A stretch of DNA of 64,000 nucleotides from Desulfobacterales bacterium (GCA_963674755.2 CAXXVS010000003.1:1408001-1472000); one strand, 5' to 3'; counted from the stretch's first letter, positions 38,100 to 62,492 are shown. The notes: generated by a model not told the origin, from the sequence alone. Numbers and translations are program-made.

Positions 38100-39359
38100 T
38101 CAAATTTTCCTGCCAAAGGCCTGCCTGGCCAGTTTGCGGTTGCGCGGCCGGTAGGTGCCGTCGGCCTTTTCCCGCCGCATGACCTGCTCCATCAGCTTGA
38201 ACATCTTCATGCGCTGGGGCTCATCGTGGTAGAAGGTCCGCCAGGCATAGTCCAGCAGTTCCTGCAGCTTTTCCGGCGCCATCTGGCGGGGCTGGTAGAC
38301 CACCTTGTCGGCGGTGTACTGGTCCCAGTCGTAAGTCAGGATGCGTTTTTGCTCGTGCAGCTCCTCGTAAGCCCGGGTGTGGGGAAAGGGGGTCAGCACG
38401 GTGAACTCGGCCAGGTCCAGATCGATTTCCAGGAGAAAATCCACCAGGCGTTTGATGCTGTCCTCGGTGTGGCTGTCCAGGCCCAACAGGATGGTGCCCT
38501 CCACGCCGATGCCGTGGTCGTGGTAGCGCCTGATGCGGTCCCGGATGGTGTCCGAGCAGTCGAAGACCGCCTGATAGACGTACCAGGCCCCGGCTTGGGC
38601 GGCCAGGTCGAGCACGTCCGGCTTGTCCTCGATGGGATGGCTGCACCACTTCTTCTTCAGCGGGATCATCTCCCGGAAGAGGTCCCGCTCCCACTGGGTG
38701 TCCTGGGCCAGGGAGTTGTCCACGATAAAGAGGCGGTTGTTGTCGATGGCGGCCATTTCGGCAATGGTCTTCTCGATGGGCCGGGGACGGAAATGCCGGC
38801 CTCCCAGGAAGGCCACGCAGCAGGGGTAACAGTTGAAGCGGCATCCCCGGGAGGCATGCACCAGGTCCACCATCTGGATGCCCTTGTAGTTGTAAAGATC
38901 GCGGTCCAGGATGTCCCGGCGGGCCGTGCCCACCCATTCGATGGGGGGCCGGTCGTCCAGATAGTCGTAGACCGGCTTGAGGCGATCGTGCCGGAAATCG
39001 TCGATCACCCCCGGCATGCGCCCCTCGGCTTCTCCTAGAAAGACACTGTCGGCATGCCGTTGGGTTTCTTCAGCATGCAGCATGGTGGCGATGCCGCCGA
39101 AGATCACCTTGACGCCCCGGGCCCGGTAGGCATCGGCGATCTCCCAGCCCCGTTTGACCTGGATCGTCAGCATCATGGAGATGCCCACCATGTCCACCGG
39201 CTCGTCGAAGTCGATGGTCTGCAGGTTTTCATCGATGAAGTCCACCGCGATGTCCTCGGGCAGGCTGGCGGCGAAGACCACCGGGCCGTGGGGGGGCAGG
39301 TGAAACTCGGTTTGCTGGTACAGCTTGGCCCAGCGGGGATAGATGATGCGGAATTTCAT
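38100..39359 (-). CDS. B12-binding domain / radical SAM protein
   Basis: IFGGIAT..VFLGEAE B12-type domain; SRGCRFNCYPC; LTPFPHT. Confidence 0.9.
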   Translation of the reverse strand: MKFRIIYPRWAKLYQQTEFHLPPHGPVVFAASLPEDIAVDFIDENLQTIDFDEPVDMVGISMMLTIQVKRGWEIADAYRARGVKVIFGGIATMLHAEETQRHADSVFLGEAEGRMPGVIDDFRHDRLKPVYDYLDDRPPIEWVGTARRDILDRDLYNYKGIQMVDLVHASRGCRFNCYPCCVAFLGGRHFRPRPIEKTIAEMAAIDNNRLFIVDNSLAQDTQWERDLFREMIPLKKKWCSHPIEDKPDVLDLAAQAGAWYVYQAVFDCSDTIRDRIRRYHDHGIGVEGTILLGLDSHTEDSIKRLVDFLLEIDLDLAEFTVLTPFPHTRAYEELHEQKRILTYDWDQYTADKVVYQPRQMAPEKLQELLDYAWRTFYHDEPQRMKMFKLMEQVMRREKADGTYRPRNRKLARQAFGRKI

Positions 39360-39724
39360 CGGAATCGAAACCTCCTGTGGCGAATCGGGAATGACGATGC
39401 GTTTGCGGCTTATAGGTGATCGTCGTTAGCCCGATTATGCGTTTACGTTTAGCTATTAGCACCTTTCGTTGTGACGCCAGCGATGTCGATTTTCTTAGGG
39501 TTTGCGCCTTGATTCCCATTGGCGCACGCGGAAACTCACCCGCCTAGGGCAAGCCATCAGCGGGTTCAGACCGTCCGCGCGCCTTTTCCCATCCGCTCCG
39601 TCGATGCTCGGCGCGGAACAACGGGATGAAACCAGCGCCAAAATCCTTATAAAACAACCGCCCAATACATATCCAAAGCGGTCTGCTTTGGCGGGTGAAA
39701 CCGATCATCACGCTTGGTTGAATG

Positions 39725-40408
39725 CTATGGCCCGCTGCCCTGCTTGTCCAGCACCGGACGGGCCTCGACGAGCTCCAGATCGAGCTGGTAGGCGTTGGCT
39801 CCCATGGCTTCCAGATGGATGCGGCAGGGCACGGTCCCATGGCCCTCGACCCCGGGGGGGCGGCATTCACTGATTTCCACGCGGCGGATCATGCGCTGCC
39901 GGCGGTTGTAGCGTTCCAGAAGATAGGTCCCCTCCGGCCTGCGGATGACATCCAGGAAACCGTCCGCCAGGGCATAGCGGCAGGTCGGATTCCCCGAGGG
40001 ATTGATGCCGGTGGCGACGGGCTTTCCCCGGGGAGGGAAGAAGATCAGGCGGATGTCCTGCATCATCCCCCCGGCCAGGGTCGGCCGGTCAAAGGGCGGC
40101 AGCGCCCTGCGGATGGTGAGGGTCCCGTCGTCCCGGGCCTCGAACAGCCGCAGCCCCTCGATGGACAGCAAGGCGCATTCGATGGTGTTCGTAGCCGGTG
40201 AGAGGGATACGACCCCGAGCATGACGCCCCGGCGCCCGCCCGGCAGGTCCGTGGTGATGGTATGCACCATGCGCCAGGCGCGATGGGGAAAAGCGGCGTC
40301 ACAAACCGTCGCTACATCCCCGGGCGTCTGCTCCGCCGGCATGATGGGCGGCAGGCTGTGGCAGGCCATAATCAGCAGGGCAAACGACGGCAGCAGGAAG
40401 TGTTTCAT
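39725..40408 (-). CDS. Lipoprotein (DUF3261-like)
   Basis: Lipobox IMAC; follows the LolA-like gene. Confidence 0.7.
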   Translation of the reverse strand: MKHFLLPSFALLIMACHSLPPIMPAEQTPGDVATVCDAAFPHRAWRMVHTITTDLPGGRRGVMLGVVSLSPATNTIECALLSIEGLRLFEARDDGTLTIRRALPPFDRPTLAGGMMQDIRLIFFPPRGKPVATGINPSGNPTCRYALADGFLDVIRRPEGTYLLERYNRRQRMIRRVEISECRPPGVEGHGTVPCRIHLEAMGANAYQLDLELVEARPVLDKQGSGP

Positions 40409-41067
40409 GGGTGATCGGTAAACAGGGCGGGGTCCACGGGCTGGTTGACAACGACATCCGTGAACTGCAGCCGGGTGAAATTGTGGTCGTCCTCATAGAC
40501 CGTGACCGACTCGATGACCCCGGGGCTATCGGCCAGCTGCAGGACGATTTTCTGTATGACAGTGGAAAGCGCTTTTTTGCGCGGTGACAGGATGATACGC
40601 CCGCCGGGCTCCAGGCGGGCCTCGAACTCCGGATTTTCATCGAAGCGGCCGTTCATCCAGCGGCCGATTTCCTGCATCACGAAAGACATGGCCGGAAGGG
40701 CGGCGGAGGCATCTTCCGTCCAGGTCGGGCCGGTCTTGACGAAACGCTGCACCCGGCCCTCATTCATCAGCAGGACACTGGGCAGGGGGGCTTCATATTC
40801 CCAGCGCAGCCGGTCGGGTGCGGCAAAGATCAGCCGGCCGCGGGATACCAGGGGCTGCGCCAGAATCTGCAGGTGCTTCTCCTGGGTAAAAGCGGCCTGT
40901 ACGCTCCGGATGTCCCGGGCGGCGGCGTGGATGCTTTCCCAGGAGGTGGTCCAGCCCGCCGCGATCAGCAACAGGGCCGCGCCCGCCATAAATCCGATCC
41001 CGATCATAGCAGACCGTATGCGATCCCGCCGTCGCCCGTTGGGACGACCAACTCGTGGACGCTTCAT
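40405..41067 (-). CDS. LolA-family lipid/lipoprotein carrier-like protein
   Basis: SVQAAFTQEKHL..SRGRLIF..LRWEYEAP..DPALF. Confidence 0.85.
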   Translation of the reverse strand: MKRPRVGRPNGRRRDRIRSAMIGIGFMAGAALLLIAAGWTTSWESIHAAARDIRSVQAAFTQEKHLQILAQPLVSRGRLIFAAPDRLRWEYEAPLPSVLLMNEGRVQRFVKTGPTWTEDASAALPAMSFVMQEIGRWMNGRFDENPEFEARLEPGGRIILSPRKKALSTVIQKIVLQLADSPGVIESVTVYEDDHNFTRLQFTDVVVNQPVDPALFTDHP

Positions 41068-41068
41068 T

Positions 41069-41806
41069 TCAGCACATGCCGCCGTTGACGCCGATCACCT
41101 GACCGGTGATGTAGGAGGCCTCCTCCGAGCAGAGGAAGCGCACCAGGCCGCTGACCTCTTCAGGGCGCCCCACCCGTGACATGGGGATGGCCTGCTTGAT
41201 CATATCCACCGGCAGGTCCTTGGTCATCTCCGTATCGATCAGCCCCGGTGCCACCACATTGACCCGGATGCCCAACCGTCCCACCTCGGCCGCCAACGCC
41301 TTGCTGGCGCCGATCAGCCCTGCCTTGGCCGCCGAATAGTTGACCTGTCCCCGGTTGCCCATGATGCCCGAGACCGAAGAGATCGTGACAATCGAGCCCT
41401 TTTTGCGGCGGATCATTTTTTTGATGACCGGCTTGGTGACGTTGTAGAAGCCCTTGAGGGCCACATCGATGACCGAATTCCACTTGCTGTCCTTCATCAT
41501 AAGGAAGAGGTCGTCGGCCGTGATGCCGGCATTGTTGACCAGCACCTCGATGGCATCGTAGCGGGCGGTGATGTCCTTCATGGCCGCACCGGCCTTTTCC
41601 GGGTCGGCCACATCGAAGGCCACGGTTTCAATGGTCCCCCCGGCGCCTTCGATTTCCGCCCGGGTCTCATCGGCCGAAGCCTGGTTGGAGTGGTAGTTGG
41701 CCACCACATGGTAGCCGGCGGCCGCCAGGGTGGCCGATATGGCGCGCCCGATGCCGCGGGTGCCGCCGGTGACGATGGCCACGCGTTTTTCGTTGTCCGT
41801 GCTCAT
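41069..41806 (-). CDS. fabG: 3-oxoacyl-ACP reductase
   Basis: TGGTRGIG, NNAGITAD, NYSAAKAG, YITGQVIGVNGG. Confidence 0.92.
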   Translation of the reverse strand: MSTDNEKRVAIVTGGTRGIGRAISATLAAAGYHVVANYHSNQASADETRAEIEGAGGTIETVAFDVADPEKAGAAMKDITARYDAIEVLVNNAGITADDLFLMMKDSKWNSVIDVALKGFYNVTKPVIKKMIRRKKGSIVTISSVSGIMGNRGQVNYSAAKAGLIGASKALAAEVGRLGIRVNVVAPGLIDTEMTKDLPVDMIKQAIPMSRVGRPEEVSGLVRFLCSEEASYITGQVIGVNGGMC

Positions 41807-42183: not shown

Positions 42184-42456
42184 ATGGACGATTTTATCGA
42201 GGAACTGAAAGTACAGATTATTGAAACCCTGGCCCTGGAAGATGTTACCCCCCAGGATATCGATCCGGAAGGCCAATTGGTGGGCGGCGATCTCGGCATC
42301 GACTCCATCGACGTGCTCGAACTGGTGATGATGGTGGAAAAGGAATACGGCGTGGTGATCGACAGCAAGGAGCTGGGGGCCCAGGTTTTCGCCAGCCTGA
42401 AAGCGCTGGGCGATTATATCCGGCAGGTGCGCAGCGAGGGACGGGCGGTTGGCTGA
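42184..42456 (+). CDS. Acyl carrier protein
   Basis: LGIDSIDVLEL. Confidence 0.92.
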   Translation: MDDFIEELKVQIIETLALEDVTPQDIDPEGQLVGGDLGIDSIDVLELVMMVEKEYGVVIDSKELGAQVFASLKALGDYIRQVRSEGRAVG

Positions 42457-44695
42457 CCGGCAACGGGTCTTTATCAGCGGCATGGGCATTATCAGCGCCA
42501 TGGGGATCGGCGTGGACGCGACGCTCAAGGCGCTGCAGCGCGCCGCCACGGGCATTCGCCCCCTGACGCTTTTCCCGTGCCCGTTTGAAACGCCCCTGCC
42601 GGTGGGTGAGGTGGGGGACCTGCCCCGGGTGGCGGTGGGCCTGCCGCGGACCCACCAGCTGGCGCTGGCGGCCGTTCAGGAGGCCATGCAGGATGCGGAA
42701 ACGGTTCCGGACATGGTCATTATGGGAGTGACCACCGGGGGGATGCTCTCCACCGAGCGTGATTTGAAGCAGGGGCGGCGCATTCCGCGGTTTTCGCCCT
42801 ACCATGCGGCCGGTTCGGTGGCGGGAGTGCTTGCGGAAGAATGCGGCTGCCGCGGGCCGGTGATGACCGTATCTACGGCCTGTTCCTCCGGCGCCGTGGC
42901 CATCAAACTGGCCCTGGAGGTGCTTCGGCAGGGGGGCGCCCGGACCGTCCTGGTGGGGGGAGCGGATTCTCTGTGCCGGTTGACCTATTACGGTTTCAAC
43001 AGCCTGCAGATCGTGGACCGCCACGGCGCCCGTCCCATGGATCGGGACCGCCAGGGCATGAATGTGGGCGAGGGGGCGGCCATGCTGCTCTTGACAGCGG
43101 CCCACCAACCGCCACCCCGGGCGGTGGCCGAGGTCCTCGGCGGGGGGCTGTCCTGCGATGCCCACCACCCGGCGGCCCCCCACCCCGAAGGCCGGGGGGC
43201 CTACGATGCCATGGCCGCCGCCCTGTCGGACGCCGGCTTGCCGCCCCTATCCATAGATTATGTCAATCTGCATGGCACCGGCACCAAAGAAAACGATTTG
43301 TCCGAAGCGGTTGCCCTGCGGCGCATTTTCAAAGAGAACCTGCCGCCCGTCTCCTCGGTCAAAGGCTGTTTCGGCCACTCGCTGGCCGCGTCCGGTGTTA
43401 TCGAAGCGGTTGTGGCGGCCCTGTGTATCCGGGAAGGCTTTTTGCCGGCCAACGTGGGCTGGCGTCATCGCGACGAGGCCATCGGCTTCTGCCCGCTGGA
43501 GGCCCCCCGGTCCCAGGCGGTGGGGAAAGTCCTTTCCAACTCGTTTGGCTTCGGCGGCAACAACGCCGTGCTGGTGCTTGGGGACGCCGCGCCCTTGTCG
43601 ACGGCCCCCTCCGCGTCGGACTGGCGCACGCTGCAGGTCCGCAGCTACGCTTGTCTTACCGGGGCCGGCGGCACCGCCGCTACGCTGGAACGATTTTTCA
43701 GGGGGGCGTCCTGCAAGGGCACACTGGCGGCGGATCGCCTGACCGAAGGCCTGCCGCCCCGATCCGTAAGGCGGATGAAGCGCCTGCCGCGGATCGCCCT
43801 GGGGCTGGCGGCCCGAACCCTGAGGCGGATCGAGGGCGTCGGTCCTATCAGCGATGTCTATTTCGGGACGGCCTGGGGGGCGCTTTCGGAAACCCATGAT
43901 TTTCTGGACAAACTTTACGCAACCCAGGAGTTTTTCACCAGCCCCATCGATTTCGTGGGATCGGTCCACAATGCCCCGGCCGGTCAGATCGCCATGCGGG
44001 AGGGCGCCCGGGGGGCCAACGTCACCATGACCGGCGGCGATGCCTCTTTCGAGCAGGCCCTGACCGCGGCCCGTTTTCTGGCCGCCGGCGGCCGACAGTC
44101 GGTCCTGGTGGGAGGCGCCGATGAAATGCATCCCATTTTTTCAGCCCTCTTCGATCGATCGGTGACAATGGCCGACACCCCTTCGGACGGCGGCGGCATG
44201 CTGCTGCTGGAAACGGCCGGCGAAGCGGCCGGGCTGACGCTGCAGCCGGGATTTTTGGCGCCGGTGGGGAATCTGGGCGATTCCCTGGAGGCTGCGGCCG
44301 CTTTTCATGGCGGACCGGACGGCATCAACCAGCGCATCGGTGCGATCATGGTTGGCATCCCCGCCGTCTGCCGGGAGGAGGCCACCCCGCTTCTGGAAGC
44401 GTTCCGGCGCCGACTGGGGTTTGAAGGCCCTTTTATCGATTATCGCCGCTATGTGGGGGAATTCGGCTCGGCTTCGGCCGTGGCCGCCGTGATCGCCCTG
44501 GCGCTCCTGGAGCGCGGGTCGGTTCCCGGCCCGCTGGCAGGAGGAAAAGAGTGGGCCCTGGCCGGCCGCGGCATCTTGCTGCTGGGCCTGGGGGCGACCC
44601 TGTCGACGATGCTGGCCGATTCGTCCGGCAGCGTTGTGCGCGACAGCGGGGGATCCTACTGCCGGAAGACCCCGTTTGGGGAGCCTATCCCTTGA
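42449..44695 (+). CDS. Ketosynthase fused to a catalytically degenerate KS (chain-length-factor-like) domain
   Basis: STACSSG, NLHGTGT, FGHSL, SNSFGFGG; second domain SPIDFVGSVHNAPAG..GGDASFEQAL lacks the Cys. Confidence 0.88.
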   Translation: MADRQRVFISGMGIISAMGIGVDATLKALQRAATGIRPLTLFPCPFETPLPVGEVGDLPRVAVGLPRTHQLALAAVQEAMQDAETVPDMVIMGVTTGGMLSTERDLKQGRRIPRFSPYHAAGSVAGVLAEECGCRGPVMTVSTACSSGAVAIKLALEVLRQGGARTVLVGGADSLCRLTYYGFNSLQIVDRHGARPMDRDRQGMNVGEGAAMLLLTAAHQPPPRAVAEVLGGGLSCDAHHPAAPHPEGRGAYDAMAAALSDAGLPPLSIDYVNLHGTGTKENDLSEAVALRRIFKENLPPVSSVKGCFGHSLAASGVIEAVVAALCIREGFLPANVGWRHRDEAIGFCPLEAPRSQAVGKVLSNSFGFGGNNAVLVLGDAAPLSTAPSASDWRTLQVRSYACLTGAGGTAATLERFFRGASCKGTLAADRLTEGLPPRSVRRMKRLPRIALGLAARTLRRIEGVGPISDVYFGTAWGALSETHDFLDKLYATQEFFTSPIDFVGSVHNAPAGQIAMREGARGANVTMTGGDASFEQALTAARFLAAGGRQSVLVGGADEMHPIFSALFDRSVTMADTPSDGGGMLLLETAGEAAGLTLQPGFLAPVGNLGDSLEAAAAFHGGPDGINQRIGAIMVGIPAVCREEATPLLEAFRRRLGFEGPFIDYRRYVGEFGSASAVAAVIALALLERGSVPGPLAGGKEWALAGRGILLLGLGATLSTMLADSSGSVVRDSGGSYCRKTPFGEPIP

Positions 44696-46041
44696 ATGTC
44701 CTGCTCGTGTCGGCCAACCGGCTCAAGGCCCCCTATGTGGTCTATCCCCTGGGGCTGGACTATGTGATGCAGGCCATCGAAGACCGCCATCAGGTGCGGG
44801 TGGTGGACCTCAACGCCTCTGGCGACGACACAGCCCTGGGAACGATGATAAAGGACTTCCCTCCCGACATCGTGGGACTTTCCATCCGCAACATCGACAA
44901 CACGGATGGCCTCGATTCGCGGGGCTTCATCGGGCAGCACCGGGATCTGGTGACCTTGATCAGATCCCAGACCGCGGCGCCCATCGTTCTGGGCGGCAGC
45001 GGCTTCACGATCTTCCCGGCCGAATTGATGGCCCTGCTGGGGGCCGACTACGGGATCATCGGAGAGGGCGAGCGCCTGGCCGCGCTGCTGGAGGCCATCG
45101 AAAAGGGGAGGGACCCCGCCGGGCTCCCCGGGGTGATCCTGCCGGGTCAGGCCGCGAATCTGCCTGAGCCGCTCGATACCCCCGTGGGCCGGACGCTCAA
45201 TGGGTCCCCTGCCGTAACGGATTACTATGTGCGCCACGGGGGCATGCTCAATCTCCAGTCCAAAAGAGGATGTCCGTTCCGCTGCATCTATTGCACCTAT
45301 CCCCACATCGAGGGGCGCTCCATGCGGCTGATCCCGCCCGGGGAAGTGGCGGCCACGGCCCTGGCCCTGCAAAAGGCCGGTGCGCGCTACCTGTTTATCA
45401 CGGATTCCGCCTTCAATGCGGATTATGCGCACAGCCGGGCGGTGGCGGAGGCCTTCCGGGGTGCCGGCCTGTCCATTCCCTGGGGAGCCTTTTTTGCGCC
45501 CACCCGTCCGCCGGGGGACTATTTCGTCCGTCTGGCCCAGGCCGGGCTGTCCCACGTCGAGTTCGGCACCGAGGCCATGGCGGACACCGTTCTTAAGGCC
45601 TACCGCAAGCCCTTTCGGGTGGCCGACATCCGCGTCGCCCATCAGGCGGCCCAGGCGGCGGGGGTGCATTGCGCCCATTATCTGCTGTTGGGCGGGCCAG
45701 GCGAGACAGCGGCCACCCTTGCGGAAACGCTTTCCAATATTGACAAATTGCGCAACACCGTTGTATTTTTTTTCTGCGGTATGCGGATTTACCCGCATAC
45801 CGCTCTTTATCGTTTGGCGGTCGCGCAAGGGGTCATTGCCCCGGACGCGGACCTGCTGAAACCCGTCTTCTACCGATCCGAGGATCTCGATGAAGACATC
45901 ATCCTGGAAAAGGTAAGGCAGGCGGCCGGCGGAAGAGCCAACTGGCTTTTCGGCGCCGGCGGGGAAGAAACGGAAAAGATCCTGGCTCGGTTGCACCGCA
46001 GCGGATTCACCGGACCGCTGTGGGAATTCCTGATTCGCTGA
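44692..46041 (+). CDS. Lipid-biosynthesis-type B12-binding radical SAM protein
   Basis: YPLGLDY, GLSIRNIDN, LGGSGF, KRGCPFRCIYC; TTG start overlapping the upstream stop. Confidence 0.9.
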   Translation: MNVLLVSANRLKAPYVVYPLGLDYVMQAIEDRHQVRVVDLNASGDDTALGTMIKDFPPDIVGLSIRNIDNTDGLDSRGFIGQHRDLVTLIRSQTAAPIVLGGSGFTIFPAELMALLGADYGIIGEGERLAALLEAIEKGRDPAGLPGVILPGQAANLPEPLDTPVGRTLNGSPAVTDYYVRHGGMLNLQSKRGCPFRCIYCTYPHIEGRSMRLIPPGEVAATALALQKAGARYLFITDSAFNADYAHSRAVAEAFRGAGLSIPWGAFFAPTRPPGDYFVRLAQAGLSHVEFGTEAMADTVLKAYRKPFRVADIRVAHQAAQAAGVHCAHYLLLGGPGETAATLAETLSNIDKLRNTVVFFFCGMRIYPHTALYRLAVAQGVIAPDADLLKPVFYRSEDLDEDIILEKVRQAAGGRANWLFGAGGEETEKILARLHRSGFTGPLWEFLIR

Positions 46042-53276: not shown

Positions 53277-53287
53277 AGGGGAAAACG

Positions 53288-54121: not shown

Positions 54122-54808
54122 TTACAATGTGAAGATTGAGTGGGGGGCGTCGCCATAGGGTGCCTGCGATTCACGAATCACCCGCCTGATGCCGCGTGCG
54201 ATGTGGGCGCCGACGCCGTCCACCGCCGTTAGATCTTCCAACGCCGCATTCAATACGTTTTGAACGCTGCCGAAGCGCTCCAGCAGGCGGGCCGCCCGTG
54301 CGGGCCCTACACCCGGAAGACTTTGCAGGATATACAGCTGCTGCTTGCGCCGGCCCTTGGGCCGGTAACCGGATCGTGAAAGTCCGCCGGCGGCCATACG
54401 GTTGACCTGGCGTCCGGCATAGACCATCAGGCGCGCGGTTTCCTCGGGGCTCAAGGCCCGCAGCACTGGAATTCCCAGGACCAGGCTGGTGGTGATGAGC
54501 GCCCCCTGCAAGGCTTCCCGCTGGATTTCACCCTGCCGCAGATCGCGGCTTTTACCTTCCAGAATGAGAACCCCTTTCAACGGCGAGGCGGCCAGGCGGG
54601 TCATTTGCCTGAAAAGACGGCCGTCGATGACCGAAAGGGCAAAATCCGGCAGGGTTTTACGTTCAAAAACCAGGCGCCCGTCCACTTGGAAATCGCCCAT
54701 GGTCAACCGTTGCACTTCGCAGGTGACGCCTTCCATGGCGCTCAGTGCCTGGCGGATCGGCTGCGAGCGTTCGCGGTCGTCGATGACGATATTGATGGTT
54801 GTCTTCAA
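54122..54808 (-). CDS. ERCC4/XPF-type nuclease with tandem HhH
   Basis: DDRE, GDF..ERKT..D, LPGVG and VDGVG hairpins. Confidence 0.88.
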   Translation of the reverse strand: MKTTINIVIDDRERSQPIRQALSAMEGVTCEVQRLTMGDFQVDGRLVFERKTLPDFALSVIDGRLFRQMTRLAASPLKGVLILEGKSRDLRQGEIQREALQGALITTSLVLGIPVLRALSPEETARLMVYAGRQVNRMAAGGLSRSGYRPKGRRKQQLYILQSLPGVGPARAARLLERFGSVQNVLNAALEDLTAVDGVGAHIARGIRRVIRESQAPYGDAPHSIFTL

Positions 54809-54964
54809 GGGGTTGCCTTTACCGTTCGCTATTTAGTGTTCATCCAGAGATGGTAGATTTTGGTTTCGGCCAAGGCCGCAGTGATTTGGGAACCGCAGGC
54901 GTAGCTGAGCTACGTTGAGGATTTCCAAAGAGCGAGAACGCCGGGCGGGACCAAAAGATGCCAT

Positions 54965-56290
54965 TTATGGATGGGCACTATTTAGGTATTCTCCGATGAT
55001 GCGGAGACGCTGATTAAACCCCTGTATCGTACTGTCGACGAGTTGTTGGGGGAAGTCTCCGGGCAAGTCCGCGACGGTGTTCTCAAGTGCTATGGGTGCG
55101 TTTGTGACGATGGCCTCGAAAATCTTATTCAGACGTGTTTGGGCGAAACCGGCCCTGATGGCGGTCTGAACAAAATGACGGGGGTCTATGGTGCGAAAGA
55201 CATAGTGCCTCTTGTCGCCAACGGCCATGGCGAATTTCATTTGGTTATGGCGCAGTTGGCCGGCATCCAGGTTGGGTTGGGCCGTCATGATGTCATAGAG
55301 CGGCGTCAAGTGGAAGCGCCCGCCGGGCAGCAGAAAGATGCTGAAATTCTTGGCGTGGCCGTCTGTGGCACCCAACAGCCAGAAGAGGATTTGGGCCCGC
55401 AGGAACATCTCCTGATCTGATCCCGGTTCATCACTGGCTTTGAGGAAGTTAAGAAGTGCCTTCAGCCCCGGTCCGCCATCCGGCTCATATTTTTTTGTAG
55501 GGGGAACGGAGAGAGACTGGCAGCAATCCTCCTGGGGAAGGCGCAGCAGGCGGTTGTCCCGGGTCCAATGTCGGTCGAACCGCTCGATCACGAGAACACG
55601 CTGGTCTTCGAAATCTTTAATCACCGCATCGGCGGCCGGCAGACCGAACGCTTTGACCAGCCGCAGGCATAGATATTCATTTTCGACGCTCCGGGTCAGG
55701 TCAATGCCATTCCTCAGTTTTCCAATCTGGGGTTTGAAGATATGGGTGGTGGCCGTCGTCCCCAGAGGGATGTGCCAACGCCCTTTCCATTGCAGGAGAG
55801 CTGTTTTTTCCTGGGCACCGGCAATGGAGATGCGAAAGGCATCATCCTCGCTGACGCCGAGCGGGTATTGATTCAGCTCCCGGATGATACGGGCGATTTC
55901 GCCATCGCTGACAGTTCGTCCTTCCACTAAGCCGGCACCCGCCGGCAGGACGTTCTCCGGCAGGAATTGGAGGGCACCCACACAGTCACGCCCGACCGCT
56001 GCCAGCAGGCTGTAGGCGTCGTAACCATCGGCATGCACCCGTTGGGCCATACGGCGGCGAATTTGTTCGCTGTCCGGCAGCAGGTTATCGAAAACCGCAA
56101 CCACGGGCGCGCCGATATAGTGGTCTTCGCGCAGCGGGAGCGACAATGAGACGGGCAGGGCATGCTTCCAGGCCAGCCATGTTTCGTCATACTGAAAATC
56201 GATGGCGCCGCTGACTTGTCGGTTGAGCCGGCCTACCAGACGGCTGTTCAGGTAGAGCGAGAGGGGGCTGCGCACACGCCGCCGCGCCAT
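54965..56290 (-). CDS. hipA: HipA toxin kinase
   Basis: ISIAGAQEKT, THIFKP, ERFDR, QEDCCQ, TDGHAKNFS, PLYD. Confidence 0.95.
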   Translation of the reverse strand: MARRRVRSPLSLYLNSRLVGRLNRQVSGAIDFQYDETWLAWKHALPVSLSLPLREDHYIGAPVVAVFDNLLPDSEQIRRRMAQRVHADGYDAYSLLAAVGRDCVGALQFLPENVLPAGAGLVEGRTVSDGEIARIIRELNQYPLGVSEDDAFRISIAGAQEKTALLQWKGRWHIPLGTTATTHIFKPQIGKLRNGIDLTRSVENEYLCLRLVKAFGLPAADAVIKDFEDQRVLVIERFDRHWTRDNRLLRLPQEDCCQSLSVPPTKKYEPDGGPGLKALLNFLKASDEPGSDQEMFLRAQILFWLLGATDGHAKNFSIFLLPGGRFHLTPLYDIMTAQPNLDAGQLRHNQMKFAMAVGDKRHYVFRTIDPRHFVQTAIRAGFAQTRLNKIFEAIVTNAPIALENTVADLPGDFPQQLVDSTIQGFNQRLRIIGEYLNSAHP

Positions 56291-56541
56291 TAGAAAATAT
56301 CCTCGATGGTGCGGGTGTCCGCTTTCGTGCGTGCCCGGATGACCAGTTCCAGATCAAGGGCGGCAAGGACGTCCACCAGCGTCTGGAGCTGGGTTTTCGG
56401 CTCGCCGTTTTCGAGGCGCGATATGGTGCCCTGCCGCCGGTGGGTCCGGGTGCCGACCTCGGCTTGGGTCAGGCCCAGCGTGCGGCGTCTGCGATGCAGG
56501 GCAGCGCCGATCTGATCGGCGGTGCGTGCAATCTGCTCCAT
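56290..56541 (-). CDS. hipB: HipB antitoxin (XRE HTH)
   Basis: GLTQAEVG..QGTISRLENG; overlaps the hipA start. Confidence 0.9.
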   Translation of the reverse strand: MEQIARTADQIGAALHRRRRTLGLTQAEVGTRTHRRQGTISRLENGEPKTQLQTLVDVLAALDLELVIRARTKADTRTIEDIF

Positions 56542-56575
56542 GAAGGTTCTCTCCCTCTTTGGTCTTAATGGCGTA

Positions 56576-56648
56576 ATTATACGCCTCTGCGTATAAATGT
56601 CAATATACGCATGAGCGTATAATTATATTTTATACGCTCATGCGTATA
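56576..56648 (-). promoter_or_regulatory. hipBA promoter with three 18-bp operators
   Basis: TATACGC-N4-GCGTATA at 56578, 56604, 56631; TTGACA (56603-56598)-N16-TATAAT (56581-56576). Confidence 0.9.
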
Positions 56649-56713
56649 AGATTGGAAGTATTGACCGATCGCCATTGGGTGCATCTACCCCTCAAGCATT
56701 TGGCCTTTCTGCT

Positions 56714-57085
56714 TCAATTTCGCCAAATGCCGATGGCCAGCATCAGCCAAGCCGCTATAAAGGCGACTCCGCCGATGGGCGTGATGATGCCCAGTGAGCG
56801 GATGCCGGTCATGCTGATGACATAGAGGCTTCCGGAGAAGAGCAGGATACCGGCCGCCATGAGCAGGCCGGCCGCCGGCAGCAGGGAGGATCCCTTGTAG
56901 AGTTGGGTCAGGATGCCCACCAGGATCAGGCCCAGGGAGTGGTAGAACTGGTATTGGACGCCGGTCTGGAAAACGGCCAGGATGTCTTGCGGCAGACGGG
57001 CCTTGAGGCCATGGGCGGCAAAGGCCCCCAGGGCAACGGACAGGGCGGCGCTGACGGCGCCTGTGGCAATCAGGAAACGGGTCAT
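56714..57085 (-). CDS. DUF423 (YgdD/TMEM256) membrane protein
   Basis: VALGAFAAHGL, YQFYH, FSGSLY, ITPIGG. Confidence 0.92.
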   Translation of the reverse strand: MTRFLIATGAVSAALSVALGAFAAHGLKARLPQDILAVFQTGVQYQFYHSLGLILVGILTQLYKGSSLLPAAGLLMAAGILLFSGSLYVISMTGIRSLGIITPIGGVAFIAAWLMLAIGIWRN

Positions 57086-57253
57086 GGCATTGTCCCTATG
57101 TTAGGCGTTATCGGACCCCAACCACAAACGATGTTCTGGGGTGCAATCGCAACAAAGAAAATTATGGGCCGATGGCCTGAGATCTTTCCATTGCTATGCT
57201 TATCCTAATTTTACCAAATTGCCAGAAGGAAAGGCGATGGATCAGGCATGTCG

Positions 57254-57496
57254 CTATTTGCGGCCATTTTGAATCCCGAGCCACTCCTTAGCGTCTTCTT
57301 CAATATTATCGAGGGTAAATTGGGAGACGTCGGCATCGGAGATATCCCACAGATGCAACGAAGTCACCGTTCCGGAACAATAAGTGGCGGTCCATTGACG
57401 GAAATCATCCGCTTCCATCTTGCCGACGGCTTTGATGATCGTCAGATCCCGGGATAAATCGTAAGTCGTTTCGATGACTCCCATCGTGTGTTCCAA
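57254..57496 (-). CDS. Hypothetical protein, possibly a fragment
   Basis: 80 aa ORF co-oriented with neighbours. Confidence 0.35.
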   Translation of the reverse strand: MEHTMGVIETTYDLSRDLTIIKAVGKMEADDFRQWTATYCSGTVTSLHLWDISDADVSQFTLDNIEEDAKEWLGIQNGRK

Positions 57497-57519: not shown

Positions 57520-58884
57520 TCATGCAAACAAATCGGCTGCTGTCTGCCGGTCGTATTTGCCGGCGGCGGACATGGGGATTTTGTCAACGACAACGATCCG
57601 TCGGGGAAGCGCGTAAGGCTCCACCCTGGCCGCCAACGCCTGGCGAATCTCCATGGCATCGCGCGTGCCTTCCACCAGCGCCACGATTTCGTTTTCCCGG
57701 CCCCGACCGGCGGGCAAAGACAGCACCAGGGCGTCCGTGATGCCCGGCAGTTCCTTCAGACAGGTCTGCACGCCCTCCAGGTCCACCCGCCTGCCGCCCA
57801 CCTTGACGATGCCATCGGCCCGGCCTTTGAGGAGAAAACTCCCCTTGTTATCTTCACCCACACGATCGCCGGTCAGGAAAAACCCCTTGGCATCAGTTTT
57901 TAAGTTGGGGGAAAGATAGGGGCTGCGGACATAGAGCCGCTCGCCGATGATTTTGGTTTCCACGGAGGCCAGCGGCGAGAGGCCGGTTTCGTTGTTGGCC
58001 CGGTTGCGGGTGGCCACGCCGCCGGTTTCGGTGGAGCCGTAGACTTCGGTGACGCCGATCCCGGTCTGCTCGAAAAAGGCTGCACCGTCCTCGGGCTCCA
58101 GGCGGCCGGCCGAAGAGACGGCCAGGCGCAGGTGGCCGGCGTCGACGTCCACGCTGCGGAGCACCCGGTAGTGCATGGGCACTCCGGCGAAGATCGTGGC
58201 CTTGTGGCGGGTCAGGGCCTCCATGATGCCGTCGGGATAGACGGAGATGCCGGGGTTCACGCCGGCCGAGGCGACCATGGGGATCAGGACGGCGAAGAGC
58301 AGGCCGTAGATGTGATAGGGCACGGTCATGGCCACAAAACGGTCTTCCGGCGCTATGGCGAAGCGTTGCGCCATGAAAAAGGCTTCCCCGAAGAGATTGC
58401 CCACGGTTTTGGGCCAGACCTGGGGTTTTCCAGTTGTGCCGCCCGTGAACAGGCGCACCATCACCTTGTCGATCGGGGCAGGCTGTAAGCCCGCCTCCGA
58501 GAATCCGGCCGGGGTGATATAGACCGGCTGGAGGGGCGCGGGCAGGTCGTCCGGCCGGTCGGTGATAACCCGGCGGGCACCGGTGGCGGCGTGGATCTCC
58601 TGCAGGGCATTGGTGCTCAAGGCGTAGGGCAGCAATAGTGGGGGCGTTCCTTGGGCGGCGGCGGCCAGCATGGCTGCGGCGGTAAAGGCTTTGCCCTCGG
58701 TGTAGAGACAGACCGGCTCCTCGGGGGTATCAAAATCGGCCAGGGCGCCCACCAGGCCGTAGGCCAGATCGTAAAGCGCCTGGTAGGTGGTCAGGTGTTC
58801 GATAAAGGTCTTCTCCGGTATGGACGGCGCTGCCAGGAGCCGTGCCATCTGCTCTTCGAGTGGGATAGGGTAGTGCAAGGCCAT
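57520..58884 (-). CDS. AMP-dependent acyl ligase
   Basis: FTGGTTGKP, YGSTETG, TGD, GRADGIVKVGG, GKYD. Confidence 0.9.
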   Translation of the reverse strand: MALHYPIPLEEQMARLLAAPSIPEKTFIEHLTTYQALYDLAYGLVGALADFDTPEEPVCLYTEGKAFTAAAMLAAAAQGTPPLLLPYALSTNALQEIHAATGARRVITDRPDDLPAPLQPVYITPAGFSEAGLQPAPIDKVMVRLFTGGTTGKPQVWPKTVGNLFGEAFFMAQRFAIAPEDRFVAMTVPYHIYGLLFAVLIPMVASAGVNPGISVYPDGIMEALTRHKATIFAGVPMHYRVLRSVDVDAGHLRLAVSSAGRLEPEDGAAFFEQTGIGVTEVYGSTETGGVATRNRANNETGLSPLASVETKIIGERLYVRSPYLSPNLKTDAKGFFLTGDRVGEDNKGSFLLKGRADGIVKVGGRRVDLEGVQTCLKELPGITDALVLSLPAGRGRENEIVALVEGTRDAMEIRQALAARVEPYALPRRIVVVDKIPMSAAGKYDRQTAADLFA

Positions 58885-58887
58885 CCG

Positions 58888-60321
58888 TCAGTGATCCTTT
58901 TGGGGTTCGAAATTGCGCTTGGCTGCGATGAAGCCCGGCAAGTGGGCCATCACGTGCCACAGGCTCCAGCGGTGCTCCCATAGCCGGCGATGGAAGCGCC
59001 GCCGCCAGTCCGGGCTGGAATAGAAGCGTTTGACATGCTGGTTGTAGAGTTCGTCCAGGGCTTCCCGGGAGGCGATGGCCCGGGGCACGAAGACGAAGTT
59101 CAGGCAGTTCATCTGTCGCCAGTCTTCCCGGAAGGTACCGTGCTCCTGAAGATTCTGCCACACCGGGGCGCCGTGAAAAGGAGTGAACTTGGTCATGTTC
59201 ATGTCGTCCAGGCCGAGGGACATGACGAAATCGCTGGTGCGGCGGATGGAGGCCTCGGTTTCCCCGGGCAGGCCCATTATGAAAAGGCCCTTGGTCCGCA
59301 GCCCGTGGGCCTGGATGCGGCGAATGGTGTCCCGGACCGCCTCCGGATGGACGCCGGGTTTGTGGCGGTCCATCAACTCCGTGTCGCCGGTTTCGATGCC
59401 CAGGGACACTTGCAGGCAGTCGGCGGCTTTGAGCATCCGCAGCAGGTCGTCGTCGGCGTGTCCCACCCGCACCGCGCAGTTGAATTGTATCCCCAGGGGC
59501 TTGTCGCCCAGCAAAGTGCACAATTCGGTGATGCGGCGGCGGTGGGCGGTAAACAGGTCGTCGTAAATATTGATGTGGCGCACGCCGAAGCGGTCGTGCA
59601 GATAATGCATATGGGCGTAAATGTAGGCGGCGGAGTTATAGCGGTAGCCCTGCTTGAACACCGAGCGGTCGCAGTAGGAGCATTTGTAGGGGCATCCCCG
59701 GCTGGTGACCATGGTGGCGCCGGGGCGCTGGATGTAACTGAAAAGCGGCAGATGGTAGCGCCGGGGAAAGCCTTCCAGCAGATCGTAGGCCGGAAAGGGT
59801 AATTGGTCGAGATCCGGCAGGAGGCTGCGCGCCGGGTTGCTGACGACCTGTGCACCATCCCGCCAGATCAGTCCCGGGATGTCGGCCGGGGAGACCCCGT
59901 CGGCCAACTCGGCCAGGGTGGCCTCGCCTTCCCCCATGCAGAGAAAATCGATGGCGGCAAACGCTTTCAGCAAAGGCGCGCCGATGGCGGAGACGTGTAC
60001 TCCGCCGAAGATGCACACGATTTCGGGACGCTGCGCTTTGAGGGCCTCGGCCAGGGCGTAACCGTCCAGAAAGCCCGAGGTGGTGGCGGAAAAACCCACC
60101 AGATCGGGCTTCAGGGCCAGGATATCCCGGACCACCAGGTTATGGGGGCGGGTCCGGTCCCAGGCCAGGCAGTCGTAGACCTGCACCCGGTGGCGCCCTT
60201 CCCGCAGCCAGGCGGCCATGGAAAGCAGCCCCAAGGGCGCCATACGGTTGGCGATGGGGGTGAAGTCGGTTTGACCGGGCACCCAGTTGGAGCCGGCCGG
60301 ATGGATCAGGACGATGTTCAT
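58888..60321 (-). CDS. B12-binding radical SAM protein (class B methyltransferase-like architecture)
   Basis: PLGLLSMAA, FGGVHVS, GEGE, SRGCPYKCSYC, GLPGET. Confidence 0.92.
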   Translation of the reverse strand: MNIVLIHPAGSNWVPGQTDFTPIANRMAPLGLLSMAAWLREGRHRVQVYDCLAWDRTRPHNLVVRDILALKPDLVGFSATTSGFLDGYALAEALKAQRPEIVCIFGGVHVSAIGAPLLKAFAAIDFLCMGEGEATLAELADGVSPADIPGLIWRDGAQVVSNPARSLLPDLDQLPFPAYDLLEGFPRRYHLPLFSYIQRPGATMVTSRGCPYKCSYCDRSVFKQGYRYNSAAYIYAHMHYLHDRFGVRHINIYDDLFTAHRRRITELCTLLGDKPLGIQFNCAVRVGHADDDLLRMLKAADCLQVSLGIETGDTELMDRHKPGVHPEAVRDTIRRIQAHGLRTKGLFIMGLPGETEASIRRTSDFVMSLGLDDMNMTKFTPFHGAPVWQNLQEHGTFREDWRQMNCLNFVFVPRAIASREALDELYNQHVKRFYSSPDWRRRFHRRLWEHRWSLWHVMAHLPGFIAAKRNFEPQKDH

Positions 60322-60336
60322 AGGGGGCAGGTGATC

Positions 60337-61494
60337 CTAATGGCCGGTGTCTCCGCCGGGCGTGGGGTTGATGCTGCGTACGCCGGCCATGCTGCGGGCG
60401 GCCAGGCGTGCCAAAATCAGAGTGGTCCCGCCCATCAGGCAGGCCAGAAGGGGCGCCAGCACGAGGGCGCCGATCAGCCATTCGTATAGGCGTTCCAGGG
60501 CCTGGTAGCCGATTGTTTCCAGTGAAATTTCGGTCAGGAAACGGCCGTGGCGCAGGAGGTAACCCAACTCGATGCACAGGGCCGGCACCACCGGGGGCAT
60601 GCAGAGCTGGCTGGCCGCCAGGGCCGCGAGTTTGTTCAGTCGGAAATAGGTGGCCGCCAGGATGATGACGAGGGTGTGGCAGGCAATCAGGGGCAGGGCG
60701 CCCAGGAAGACCCCCATGCCGGCCGCCAGGGCCAGCTGGGTGGGGGAGGTGTTTTCCCGCAGCAGGGTGCGCAGGGACTGCATGGGATGCCATACGGAAA
60801 TGGCCCTCCCCGGCATGTCGTTCCCGGCCACCAGCTTGCGGTGGGGTACCGGGAGAACCGAGCGCAGGGTGTAATGAATGTTCAGCAGGAACCGCCACAG
60901 GCTGCGCCGTGGGGGCTCCCCCGCGCCCCCGGGCGTCGCCGGGTTTGCCTCCAGCGCTATCTCATGAAACGGCACGTCGGCCCAGGCGGATTTAATCAGG
61001 AGTTCGGTGGCAAGCGCCTTGCCCCCCTGAAAGAGCCGCAAATGGTCGATAACCGCCAGGGGGTAGATGCGCAGCGGGCTGGCAGGGTCTTCCAGATGGC
61101 GTCCGGTCTGGATTTTAAGCCAGAACCGCGGCAGGGACCGTTCGGCCCATCGTTCCCGCCACCCGATCCGGCCGGCTGCCTGGCGACACCCCATGACAAG
61201 CGCCGTGGGATGGGACCGGCAGGCCTCGACCAGCCGCTTCAGATTCACCTCGCTGGATATGGATGCGGCCGTGATGATGGCCAGATGGGAGGCATCGCGC
61301 GTTCGGGCCCGATGGGCGGCCTCCCGCAGGGTGGAAACCGTTAAACGGTCCGCCCCATGGCCGCCGACCGCAATCAGGACCCCATCGGCAGCGCGGGAGA
61401 TTTGTCGCGCGGCGGCGTTGAAATGCGTCCCGTTTTTTTTCGGGCCGGGCCATATGAAAAAGGCGATTCGGATTGTTATAAGTCCCCGTTGCAA
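60337..61494 (-). CDS. Degenerate GT2-like domain fused to DUF2062-like membrane domain; start uncertain
   Basis: FWLKIQTG..EDPASPLRIYPL; C-terminal SPTQLALAAGMGVFLG..WLIG. Confidence 0.75.
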   Translation of the reverse strand: MQRGLITIRIAFFIWPGPKKNGTHFNAAARQISRAADGVLIAVGGHGADRLTVSTLREAAHRARTRDASHLAIITAASISSEVNLKRLVEACRSHPTALVMGCRQAAGRIGWRERWAERSLPRFWLKIQTGRHLEDPASPLRIYPLAVIDHLRLFQGGKALATELLIKSAWADVPFHEIALEANPATPGGAGEPPRRSLWRFLLNIHYTLRSVLPVPHRKLVAGNDMPGRAISVWHPMQSLRTLLRENTSPTQLALAAGMGVFLGALPLIACHTLVIILAATYFRLNKLAALAASQLCMPPVVPALCIELGYLLRHGRFLTEISLETIGYQALERLYEWLIGALVLAPLLACLMGGTTLILARLAARSMAGVRSINPTPGGDTGH

Positions 61495-61607
61495 TTCGAA
61501 AATAAGAAAGGACGGGCATCGTCCGGAAATCCAAACCTACCGTTTAGCAGGCTCTCCGGCAGATGGCAAGGATGATGGTGGATGCGGACTTCGACGCGCT
61601 GTTCTTT

Positions 61608-62492
61608 TCAGGTAGGCGTGGTTTGGCGGACGGTCGCCTGGAATGAGGATAGGGGGCGGTCGGCAGCGGTCAGGGATGCTGTTGCCCGATATGTTTCCGA
61701 TTCCTGTTCCAGGCGGCAGAGAACCTGCACCCTTTGTCCGGGCCGCAACGGTTCGCGGAATTTGGCTTTGTCGAGGCGTTCCAGCACAACCGGGTTGCGC
61801 CAAGCGGAGGCCAACATGGCCAGGACCACCCGGACCTGGGCAAAGGCGGGCAGCACCGGGTTGCCGGGAAAATGGCCCTGGAAAGCGATGAAGGGCTGCG
61901 GGAAGCAGAAAGAACGGACGATGGTATGGTCATTCTCCCATTCCAGCGGGCAGAGGGCGGCGGAGGCCATGGCCTGGTCCCAGGGGGCAGGAGGGGTAAA
62001 AGTGGCTGGGGCTTCGCTCCCGGGCGCAGGGGCAGGTTTCTCGTCGGGAGGCACCAGCCAAAGCTTGAGTCGTCCCCGGGCCAGACATCGATCCCGGCGG
62101 TGAACCTGGCCCCGGACTACCACGAAGGCACCGATATGATCGCTTTCCTGCATGGTGACGCTGACCCGGTCCCCGATTCGGGCGGTGCCGCTGAAAGAAA
62201 CGGCGTCGGCGCCCACCAGATAGCCGGTCTGGGGCGGTGCATCGTGTTGCCGCTCGCGCCAGCCCTTCACCGCCGCAAAGGTCTGGGCAATGAGCTCCAA
62301 ATGGGCGGTGGGATTCAGGCGGCCGTCCGGATCGATAAAGAGCGGATTGCCGGGAATCGAAACTCCGGCACGGCCACCCCGGTCATCCACCGCCTGGAGG
62401 GTATCGATCAGACGTACCGGCCGCCGGTGGGGCAGCAATCCGGCGGCCGGTGCCGGCAGGCCGGCAATGGCATTTCGTTCAGATTGAGGCAT
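61608..62492 (-). CDS. Two-domain hotdog dehydratase-like protein
   Basis: LLPHRRPVRLID..ELIAQ; second domain FQGHFPGNPVLPA. Confidence 0.82.
   Translation of the reverse strand: MPQSERNAIAGLPAPAAGLLPHRRPVRLIDTLQAVDDRGGRAGVSIPGNPLFIDPDGRLNPTAHLELIAQTFAAVKGWRERQHDAPPQTGYLVGADAVSFSGTARIGDRVSVTMQESDHIGAFVVVRGQVHRRDRCLARGRLKLWLVPPDEKPAPAPGSEAPATFTPPAPWDQAMASAALCPLEWENDHTIVRSFCFPQPFIAFQGHFPGNPVLPAFAQVRVVLAMLASAWRNPVVLERLDKAKFREPLRPGQRVQVLCRLEQESETYRATASLTAADRPLSSFQATVRQTTPT

Follow-up and report, generated by a model that had tools for sequence, protein, structure and literature searches.

A widespread aryl-polyene-type gene cluster with five radical SAM enzymes in a Desulfobacterales genome

Anatomy of the cluster and its satellite loci

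The stretch of DNA analysed here (the window) comprises 64,000 nucleotides from a Desulfobacterales bacterium (GCA_963674755.2, CAXXVS010000003.1:1408001-1472000), and carries a lipid- or polyketide-type gene cluster in which ketosynthases (KSs) and acyl carrier proteins (ACPs) are encoded beside five radical S-adenosylmethionine (SAM) enzymes. The cluster is real and widespread, and its scaffold is a known one. Its anatomy was established by listing and translating open reading frames (ORFs) and by scanning the window's proteins against Pfam and NCBIfam, with gene starts from a codon-usage gene caller whose possible error is a few codons (Table 1). The left arm, on the minus strand, encodes FabG, a LolA-like protein, a lipoprotein and radical SAM A. 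A central plus-strand run holds ACP1, a KS fused to a chain-length factor (KS-CLF), a radical SAM enzyme of family TIGR04072, an ApeI-like dehydratase, ACP2, the twin radical SAM enzymes N1 and N2, KS2, KS3, a thioesterase, a polyketide synthase (PKS)-type dehydratase and an alpha/beta hydrolase, and the right arm, again on the minus strand, a lipoprotein, an ApeP-ApeI fusion, a DUF2062 protein, radical SAM C and an AMP ligase.

A sequence-only reading of the same DNA had drawn the cluster at 38100..62492, and every gene that it named was found in place by the ORF, Pfam and NCBIfam scans: the KS-CLF fusion, with Cys-His-His kept in the N-terminal half and a C-terminal half that matches PF13723 (Ketoacyl-synt_2) without the triad; two FabF-like KSs with the triad intact; two ACPs with their DS motif; FabG; three dehydratase genes with their own motifs; the hotdog thioesterase, AMP ligase, LolA-like protein and lipoproteins; and three B12-binding (at 38100, 44692 and 58888) and two non-B12 (at 46777 and 47957) radical SAM enzymes. 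The extent it gave stands only in part, as the cluster is split by an insert at 54122-57484 that separates the central run from the right arm, reaches to 63093, and has more of its pathway at four other loci. The last gene, a lipoprotein at 62503-63093, has homologues in 5 of the 10 mapped loci of relatives; a continuation past it was rejected, an iron-containing alcohol dehydrogenase gene and unrelated genes coming next.

The C-terminal half of the fusion finds its best matches in the PDB in 6kxd_B and 6qsp_B, the latter of which we take to be the ApeO-ApeC complex. The Cys-His-His triad is kept in 73/73 aligned homologues of KS2 and 64/64 of KS3 (the window's own sequences counted in), and both KSs share an invariant Cys, at a position that presumably lines the acyl tunnel, where the genome's own FabF has Ile. 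Radical SAM A reaches 30.9 bits against the PF02310 cut-off of 32.1 and has no match to Pfam Radical_SAM, yet its CxxxCxxC motif is present. Within the Lol-like export pair, LolA is recognised by PF03548, and its ApeN partner (DUF3261) is an Atlas lead only: just 17% of the members in its matched Atlas cluster carry DUF3261. The DUF2062 protein is 30% identical to GT2 proteins of related clusters, and no enoyl reductase is present in the polyene gene set.

Pathway genes lie at four further loci of the same genome, satellites (a) to (d) in Table 1, with which the count of radical SAM enzymes rises from five in the window to seven. Several Dar models exceed their cut-offs (StlD/DarB 530 bits vs 450, DarG family 130 vs 70, DarH 472 vs 300), whereas resorcinol_DarB gives 447 bits vs 550 for the DarB of satellite (d). 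The DarA-like gene beside it has no NCBIfam match, and we assume its identity from its position. In satellite (b), an ammonia-lyase gene (FlxA model 289 bits vs 700; HAL 420 vs 524) adjoins a CoA ligase gene at C2:1713078-1716452, followed by a KS and triad-less KS pair at C2:1716477-1718940; the best PDB match of the KS is 9s5h, putatively the anammox heterodimer.

Most of satellite (a), the MMPL gene too, is physically joined to a window-type cluster in relatives G014, G027, G032, G005, G114 and G162, and G114 has darAB inside the cluster. In the three Smithella-type genomes mapped, ACP1, TIGR04072 and the N module occupy a locus of their own that mostly includes FabA and PlsY too; A comes after the KS/CLF pair of satellite (b) and, in two of these genomes, C after Dar-ABC-ACP-KS-CLF genes. 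From this splitting we deduce that the five radical SAM enzymes form at least three separable units. In G162 and G168 (loci L155 and L159), a B12 radical SAM gene, 54% identical between the two, stands directly before darB where others carry darA; its product may replace an aromatase or tailor the ring.

Table 1. Features of the cluster and of its satellite loci, with the matches on which each assignment rests
Feature	Coordinates	Strand	Basis
B12-binding radical SAM A, 419 aa	38100..39359	-	PF02310 E=2.7e-7; CxxxCxxC at 173-180
Lipoprotein, likely ApeN/LolB-like (DUF3261)	39725..40408	-	Atlas score 0.97, a lead; no Pfam match
LolA-like carrier (ApeL / flexirubin LolA2-like)	40405..41067	-	PF03548 E=6e-15; NF053544 92 bits, under cut-off 125
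FabG-type ketoreductase (ApeQ/FlxB-like)	41069..41806	-	NF004200 311 bits vs cut-off 273; NF053542 FlxB 308, under 340
ACP1	42184..42456	+	PRK09184 69.7 bits vs cut-off 70; DS motif at 40
KS fused to CLF (ApeO-ApeC-like)	42449..44695	+	best NCBIfam PRK09185 318 bits, under 407
B12 radical SAM, TIGR04072 (kuste3342-type), TsrM-related	44692..46041	+	415 bits vs cut-off 360
ApeI-like hotdog dehydratase	46075..46422	+	PF22818
ACP2	46489..46749	+	PF00550; DS motif
Non-B12 radical SAM N1	46777..47871	+	C-terminal CC-x5-C-x2-C motif; no NCBIfam model near cut-off
Non-B12 radical SAM N2	47957..48955	+	C-terminal CC-x6-C-x2-C motif; no named family
FabF-like ketosynthase KS2	49166..50416	+	triad intact
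FabF-like ketosynthase KS3	50659..51924	+	triad intact
Hotdog thioesterase (YbgC/FadM family)	51925..52404	+	TIGR00051 81 bits vs cut-off 68.7
PKS-type double-hotdog dehydratase (PS-DH)	52383..53276	+	PF14765, PF21089; His and Asp motifs
Alpha/beta-hydrolase lipoprotein, accessory	53288..54034	+	Pfam; present in only 7/80 loci
Unrelated insert: ERCC4/XPF-like gene, HipA-HipB, DUF423, short ORF	54122..57484	-	Pfam
Acyl-AMP / acyl-ACP ligase (ApeH-, FlxW- or kuste3344-like)	57520..58884	-	PF00501; A3 and GDR motifs
B12 radical SAM C, accessory	58888..60321	-	Pfam; present in 3/80 loci
DUF2062 membrane protein, degenerate glycosyltransferase-like N-terminus	60337..61494	-	PF09835; no GT2 match
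Fused ApeP-like + ApeI/FabZ-like dehydratase	61608..62492	-	PF22817, PF07977
Lipoprotein without known family, last cluster gene	62503..63093	-	lipobox seen in sequence
Satellite (a)	C1:742464-756534		ACP, DAK2-DegV (FakA-FakB-like) fusion, thioesterase, DarG family, DarH, ABC-2 exporter, GT2, MMPL, LpxL-type acyltransferase, ACP, KS, PlsC
Satellite (b)	C2:1713078-1719709		aromatic amino acid lyase, CoA ligase, triad-less KS, KS, ApeP-like dehydratase
Satellite (c)	C2:761451-762944		one more B12 radical SAM
Satellite (d)	C3:1194506-1197862		StlD/DarB, DarA-like gene, SPASM radical SAM

The twin radical SAM module and its neighbours

A scan of a species-level genome collection with N2 returned 539 relatives. 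Neighbours were counted in the best 80, whose titles are mostly Desulfobacterales, Smithella/Syntrophaceae, Desulfobulbaceae and Spirochaetota, using only loci with enough flank (denominators of 50-75). Beside N2 stand N1 and ACP2 (66/66 each), the ApeI-like dehydratase (61/61), KS2 (72/75), KS3 (61/65), the thioesterase (56/62), PS-DH (45/53), ACP1 (45/50), TIGR04072 (44/56), PlsY (25/50) and the KS-CLF fusion (24/50). The association of the N-module genes is not due to chance. Their order is near-invariant (dehydratase, ACP, two radical SAMs, two KSs, thioesterase, dehydratase, with PlsY often next), and gene order is maintained both in three genus relatives and in other families. The co-occurrence of radical SAM with KS and ACP genes in other genomes, by which the sequence-only reading had beforehand agreed to stand or fall, is thereby upheld. 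Conservation is high, with a mean column identity over 50 sequences of 86% for N2 and 71% for ACP2, the latter of which is the predicted dedicated carrier of the twin radical SAM module. One such locus (L105) comes from Desulfogranum japonicum DSM 18378, a sulfate reducer in culture.

A sample of 151 genomes of the order gave counts and not tests, kin not being independent. N2 is present in 44 genomes (one copy with stops), radical SAM A in 55, TIGR04072 above its cut-off in 54, and a DarA-like gene in 12, all 12 of which also carry N2. Among the 44 N2 genomes, A is found in 44 and TIGR04072 in 39; A occurs without N2 in 11 genomes and TIGR04072 without N2 in 15. None of 14 control genomes has TIGR04072.

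It is conceivable, if doubtful, that two pathways merely lie side by side here, with ACP1-TIGR04072-ACP2-N1-N2-KS2-KS3-thioesterase-dehydratase(-PlsY) making a methyl-branched, desaturated or cyclic phospholipid fatty acid apart from the aryl-polyene lipid. The separate Smithella-type locus with FabA and PlsY, the place of PlsY next to half of the counted modules, and the 11 and 15 genomes with A or TIGR04072 but no N2 would all suit such a division. On the other hand, A, which is sited among polyene and transport genes, is kept in every N2 genome of the sample, the five Smithella-type genomes searched retain A and further KS genes (the three mapped hold a polyene locus), and MMPL adjoins the module in 10/80 loci.

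N1 and N2 are homologous (profile match 99.95%) and belong to a family of 636 representatives at E<=0.001. In a quick tree of 70 aligned sequences they fall into two deep subfamilies, and on this quick tree a recent tandem duplication was rejected as their origin. The predicted model of N2 has a predicted local distance difference test score (pLDDT) of 94. Like the SPASM/twitch radical SAM enzymes (SkfB, BlsE, GDGT-MAS/Tes), the pair combines a radical SAM core with a C-terminal cysteine motif; unlike them, it fits no NCBIfam model and aligns in the core only, the matches of N2 in the PDB, with SkfB best, being a comparison of sequence profiles. Of 70 family sequences, 68, 52, 67 and 67 retain the successive C-terminal cysteines, and although Pfam matches no SPASM domain in N1 or N2, this conserved CC..C..C motif fits an auxiliary Fe-S cluster. 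The profile of ACP2 retrieved ordinary ACPs only from the PDB, none recognisable as amxACP.

The sister clade of N2 offers a view of related enzymes in other company. A metagenome scan gave 38 loci, of which 32 were examined after one near-duplicate and five short or weak loci had been dropped; neighbours were at most two same-strand ORFs per side (98/99 scanned), and some loci form near-identical pairs. A PaaA/PaaC-type diiron gene adjoins the radical SAM gene in 19/32 loci and lies directly upstream in 16/32; genes for a thioesterase, MaoC, a thiolase, a ligase or an acyltransferase are often close by. The pairing of a diiron gene with an N2-type gene recurs in three of the four plasmid loci opened (Alteromonas, Burkholderia, Tistrella). 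The fourth, from the N1-side clade, whose neighbourhoods come from this one plasmid, holds ACP, TauD and nonribosomal peptide synthetase (NRPS) genes. A further relative, P0017, has a thioesterase and a TubC docking domain as fusion partners. The sister-clade neighbourhoods point to thioester substrates, and suggest that N1, which takes the position of the diiron gene, may replace an oxygen-using diiron step. We would go one step further, though at rather low odds, and propose that N1 and N2 together act as an oxygen-free oxidase on carrier-bound chains, a class of radical SAM desaturase or cyclase that would give acyl-ACP2 a new C=C double bond or carbocycle. Strains that have the kuste3342-type enzyme as well would then open the anammox candidate chemistry to tests outside the anammox bacteria.

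Could the pair instead have protein substrates, serving ACP2, KS2 and KS3 or each other as maturases or redox partners? Their closest solved relatives are SPASM/twitch enzymes, with SkfB best, many of which are peptide maturases, and the tight pairing of the sister clade with a diiron protein would fit a redox partner too. We nonetheless regard this as improbable: no precursor peptide is seen, it is ACP2, KS2, KS3, thioesterase and dehydratase that accompany N1 and N2, and the fusion in P0017 links the family to a thioesterase and a docking domain.

Two of the plasmid-type loci merit separate description. In an Alteromonas plasmid (L131:19180-21535), a cassette of PaaA-like diiron protein, N-family radical SAM and MaoC dehydratase lies beside a Tn3 element, and the radical SAM has near-identical matches on other Alteromonas plasmids and on one Enterobacter plasmid. 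The Burkholderia stagnalis locus (L132:11087-22052) combines an acyl-homoserine lactone (AHL) synthase, an adenylation domain, two carriers, a chlorinating enzyme, a thioesterase, a PaaA-like gene and an N-family radical SAM.

Kinship with B12 radical SAM, aryl polyene and anammox systems

After TIGR04072 (rSAM_ladder_B12), the next NCBIfam families matched by the 44692 gene are BzaD, an enzyme of aromatic-ring methylation, and TsrM, a tryptophan 2-C-methyltransferase. TsrM is also its nearest solved structure (PDB 6wte, E=1.8e-38). Arg69, below the cobalamin in TsrM, is kept in 35/35 TIGR04072-type sequences; the cluster-ligating Glu273, in contrast, is kept in 1/35 (Ala 24, Val 9, Thr 1, Glu 1; Ala in the window), and the substrate here is likely ACP-bound. 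Both residues are described as central to non-radical methylation by TsrM in a review (PMC9204698). The likely reaction of the TIGR04072 enzyme is methylation of an sp2 carbon.

Two 3'-partial copies of radical SAM A lie elsewhere in the window, at 27389-28285 (897 bp, 96.7%) and 30607-30740 (136 bp, 85%), bordering a tripartite ATP-independent periplasmic (TRAP)-lactate block and an amino-acid ATP-binding cassette (ABC) block, as if islands had been joined at the 3' end of the gene. In place of the 5' part of the longer copy stands a 70-80 bp element with inverted arms that resembles a miniature inverted-repeat transposable element (28295-28363; also at 11419-11499 and 13626-13710, with about ten copies in the genome).

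The scaffold matches aryl polyene (APE) systems, as the sequence-only reading had proposed. All six types of APE core gene given by Grammbitter 2020 (10.1101/2020.12.19.423268; KS, CLF, ACPs, dehydratase, ketoreductase, transporter) are present once satellite (a) is counted. With the ape clusters of E. coli CFT073 and Xenorhabdus doucetiae, the set shares KS/CLF, a further KS, at least two ACPs, ApeI/ApeP, FabG, an acyl-ACP ligase and a hotdog thioesterase, together with LolA-like, DUF3261-like and MMPL genes and two acyltransferase/glycosyltransferase types (PMC8253772); the known APE lipid bears a second, conjugated acyl chain (10.1101/2020.12.19.423268). It differs in that KS and CLF are fused, as are ApeP and ApeI, and in that the radical SAM enzymes and the ACP2-KS2-KS3-thioesterase-dehydratase line match none of the ape genes given in PMC8253772. 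Moreover, Pfam scans found no gene for an ApeB-type SAM-dependent methyltransferase in the window or satellites; the MMPL protein of relative G032 carries a methyltransferase domain, whereas that of this genome has no Pfam match for one. The lack of ApeB and the added modules make this a variant of the APE cluster rather than a plain member.

The likeness extends to flexirubin and arcuflavin, which are aryl polyene-dialkylresorcinol compounds: ammonia-lyase, CoA ligase, at least five KSs, LolA, glycosyltransferase, exporter, putative DarA/DarB, a BtrH-like gene and an ABC transporter recur, and the loci are split, as in Azoarcus (PMC3949708, PMC3992019). Here, however, the hosts are anaerobe lineages (by genome titles), darA occurs in only 12/44 N2 genomes, a B12 radical SAM precedes darB in G162 and G168, and flexirubin-specific models stay under cut-off. 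A product that is released as a small molecule (dialkylresorcinol, cyclohexanedione or polyene acid), and not an anchored lipid, would be compatible with the DarB/DarA, DarG, DarH, ABC-2 exporter and two thioesterases encoded, but we give it a poor chance in view of the LolA-like, DUF3261-like, MMPL, LpxL, PlsC and GT2 proteins, the set by which APE lipids are anchored and exported, and of the rarity of DarA-like genes among N2 genomes. The N module itself was rejected as the dialkylresorcinol maker, 32/44 N2 genomes having no DarA-like gene.

A link to anammox candidate genes had also been put forward. By-eye comparison of the first ~400 bases of four kuste genes (PMC4790861) matches the 44692 gene with kuste3342 and the satellite SPASM enzyme with kuste3343, and puts A, over ~125 residues, in the same broad subfamily as kuste3608/kuste2803, which need not mean orthology. 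No named anammox proteins appear among the best 120 of 6035 homologue matches. Rattray 2009 (PMC2649909) described syntenic type II fatty acid synthase (FAS II) clusters in Desulfotalea psychrophila, naming DP1860 among Kuenenia-like clusters and reporting no ladderanes there, and Table S7 of Schoner 2014 (PMC3949708) gives DP1836-DP1860 and Desulfurivibrio loci as polyene clusters. Publication of this cluster type dates back to 2009, and its entry among polyene clusters to 2014. With Kuenenia kuste3335-3352 and D. psychrophila, the present cluster shares kuste3342-type and kuste3343-type radical SAMs, ligase, ACPs, KS/CLF, FabG and glycosyltransferase; it differs in that the N1/N2 module is not among the four Kuenenia radical SAMs listed in PMC4790861 (N-termini unlike by eye), and in that the window has neither a desaturase-like gene nor a SAM methylase. 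The proposed link therefore stands as regards TIGR04072, which scores above cut-off, and the D. psychrophila clusters (PMC2649909), but the tie is to the APE-like kuste3335-3352 and not to the ladderane 'Cluster I'.

From Cluster I (kuste3603-3608) the cluster differs. The FabF2 and triad-less FabF pair has no equivalent in the window, where KS2 and KS3 are intact, such a pair being found only at satellite (b); Pfam finds no phytoene-desaturase-like gene in 38100-63093; and the resemblance to kuste3608 is the by-eye likeness of A, which in Smithella-type genomes comes after a KS/CLF pair. That the product is a ladderane (cyclobutane) lipid or precursor, as proposed for the anammox clusters, we hold to be very improbable. 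The TIGR04072 score, the by-eye kuste3342 and kuste3343 matches and the KS pair of satellite (b) do lean that way. Set against them are the absence of ladderanes from D. psychrophila despite its syntenic cluster (PMC2649909), the description of Cluster I as limited to ladderane producers (PMC10139942), and a window that holds neither the desaturase-like gene nor a triad-less stand-alone FabF. Further sources were 10.64898/2026.05.19.726425, PMC13459092 and PMC9902471.

A proposed oxygen-free route to an outer-membrane lipid

We lean towards the view that the genes encode an oxygen-free route to an APE/flexirubin-type outer-membrane lipid, with an aromatic head and a second acyl chain tailored by radical SAM enzymes. 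Genes, motifs, order, synteny and co-occurrence were obtained by sequence and comparison, and it is from these that we infer the chemical steps and the product. First, the AMP ligase would load onto ACP1 an aromatic acid that the ammonia-lyase and CoA ligase of satellite (b) may provide; the KS-CLF fusion, FabG and ApeI/ApeP dehydratases would then extend the polyene. Third, the TIGR04072 enzyme could C-methylate an sp2 or aromatic carbon bound to ACP1, standing in for the missing ApeB. A separate acyl chain would come from a second line of ApeI-like dehydratase, ACP2, KS2, KS3 and PS-DH; from this chain N1 and N2 might take hydrogen, oxidising the radical via their C-terminal Fe-S cluster to leave a double bond or ring. 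Fifth, the thioesterase would free the acid, which the FakA-FakB-like fusion and PlsY/PlsC-type acyltransferases would put on glycerol phosphate (FakA/FakB make acyl-phosphate, which PlsY uses); GT2 and the LpxL-type acyltransferase would attach sugar and polyene, and in genomes with darAB a dialkylresorcinol is a possible anchor. Finally, MMPL, the LolA-like protein and the lipoproteins would carry the product to the outer membrane, with A and C perhaps making further changes. Another candidate considered for the product was 10-methylhexadecanoate.

Several results speak against this proposal. Chief amongst them is the Smithella-type arrangement, in which ACP1 and TIGR04072 accompany the N module, FabA and PlsY apart from the polyene genes, and which indicates a fatty-chain substrate rather than an aryl head; together with the lack of a cluster-type PlsY in this genome, it is the main result against a single product. 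At E<1e-10, neither a PlsY of the cluster type nor a GT25 or polysaccharide deacetylase turns up in the genome, the only PlsY, elsewhere, being a 37.5% match. TIGR04072 is not beside N2 in 12/56 loci, nor is the KS-CLF fusion in 26/50; DarA-like genes were not found in 32/44 N2 genomes with the query used; the majority of NCBIfam models for flexirubin and APE genes stay under their cut-offs; and the substrate of the ammonia-lyase is not readable from sequence. With Glu273 gone in 34/35 sequences, the non-radical mechanism of TsrM is not simply retained, and the third step may differ. No product, pigment or enzyme activity was observed, and the papers found, in a search outside which most subscription journals lay, give no product or activity for the cluster or for N1/N2, nor a characterised product for related clusters, as the sequence-only reading had supposed. 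Of that reading, the scaffold and the anammox gene link survive, whilst its single cluster becomes part of a larger flexirubin/APE-type system with its five radical SAMs in separable modules; whether the lipid is 'methylated, cyclised or cross-linked' is still something we infer.

As for the surroundings of these genes, DUF423 and ERCC4 recur in the insert slot of some genus relatives, and the remaining content varies across three relatives. The HipB-HipA toxin-antitoxin pair (54965-56603) has no counterpart in the same slot of the three genus relatives mapped, and a ~160 bp repeat with >15 genome copies lies between the ERCC4-like gene and hipA (54822-54990). A promoter scan gave 10 matches vs 5.2+/-2.5 in shuffles, and a terminator scan 22 vs 18.1+/-4.3, both close to the shuffled level; the sole perfect promoter (sigma-70 consensus) is upstream of hipB. 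In metatranscriptome X1 (share 0.10), contigs of relatives cover 29/30 bins, mostly <90% alike, which is not counted as expression, DNA being possible in a library without silent control. The cluster is flanked by two related GntR/TRAP/LutABC-type lactate-use blocks (30811-37983 and L001:16010-19266; Lut genes ~75% alike), and 3 kb beyond the cluster end lie genes for a flavoprotein resembling phytoene desaturase and for an FAD/2Fe-2S reductase (L001:5020-8027). The region 2001-14000, of low GC content (0.29-0.49) and with transposase genes, is likely foreign.

The cluster is conserved across many sulfate reducers and other anaerobes, with five to seven radical SAM enzymes beside dedicated ACPs. 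If our proposal is true, these bacteria would possess an oxygen-free route to APE/flexirubin-type envelope lipids, with new C-H chemistry on acyl-ACPs, and the lipid produced could be used as a biomarker of sulfate reducers and syntrophs. Some of the genes regarded as 'ladderane candidates' in anammox bacteria would then be reassigned to a polyene-lipid pathway.

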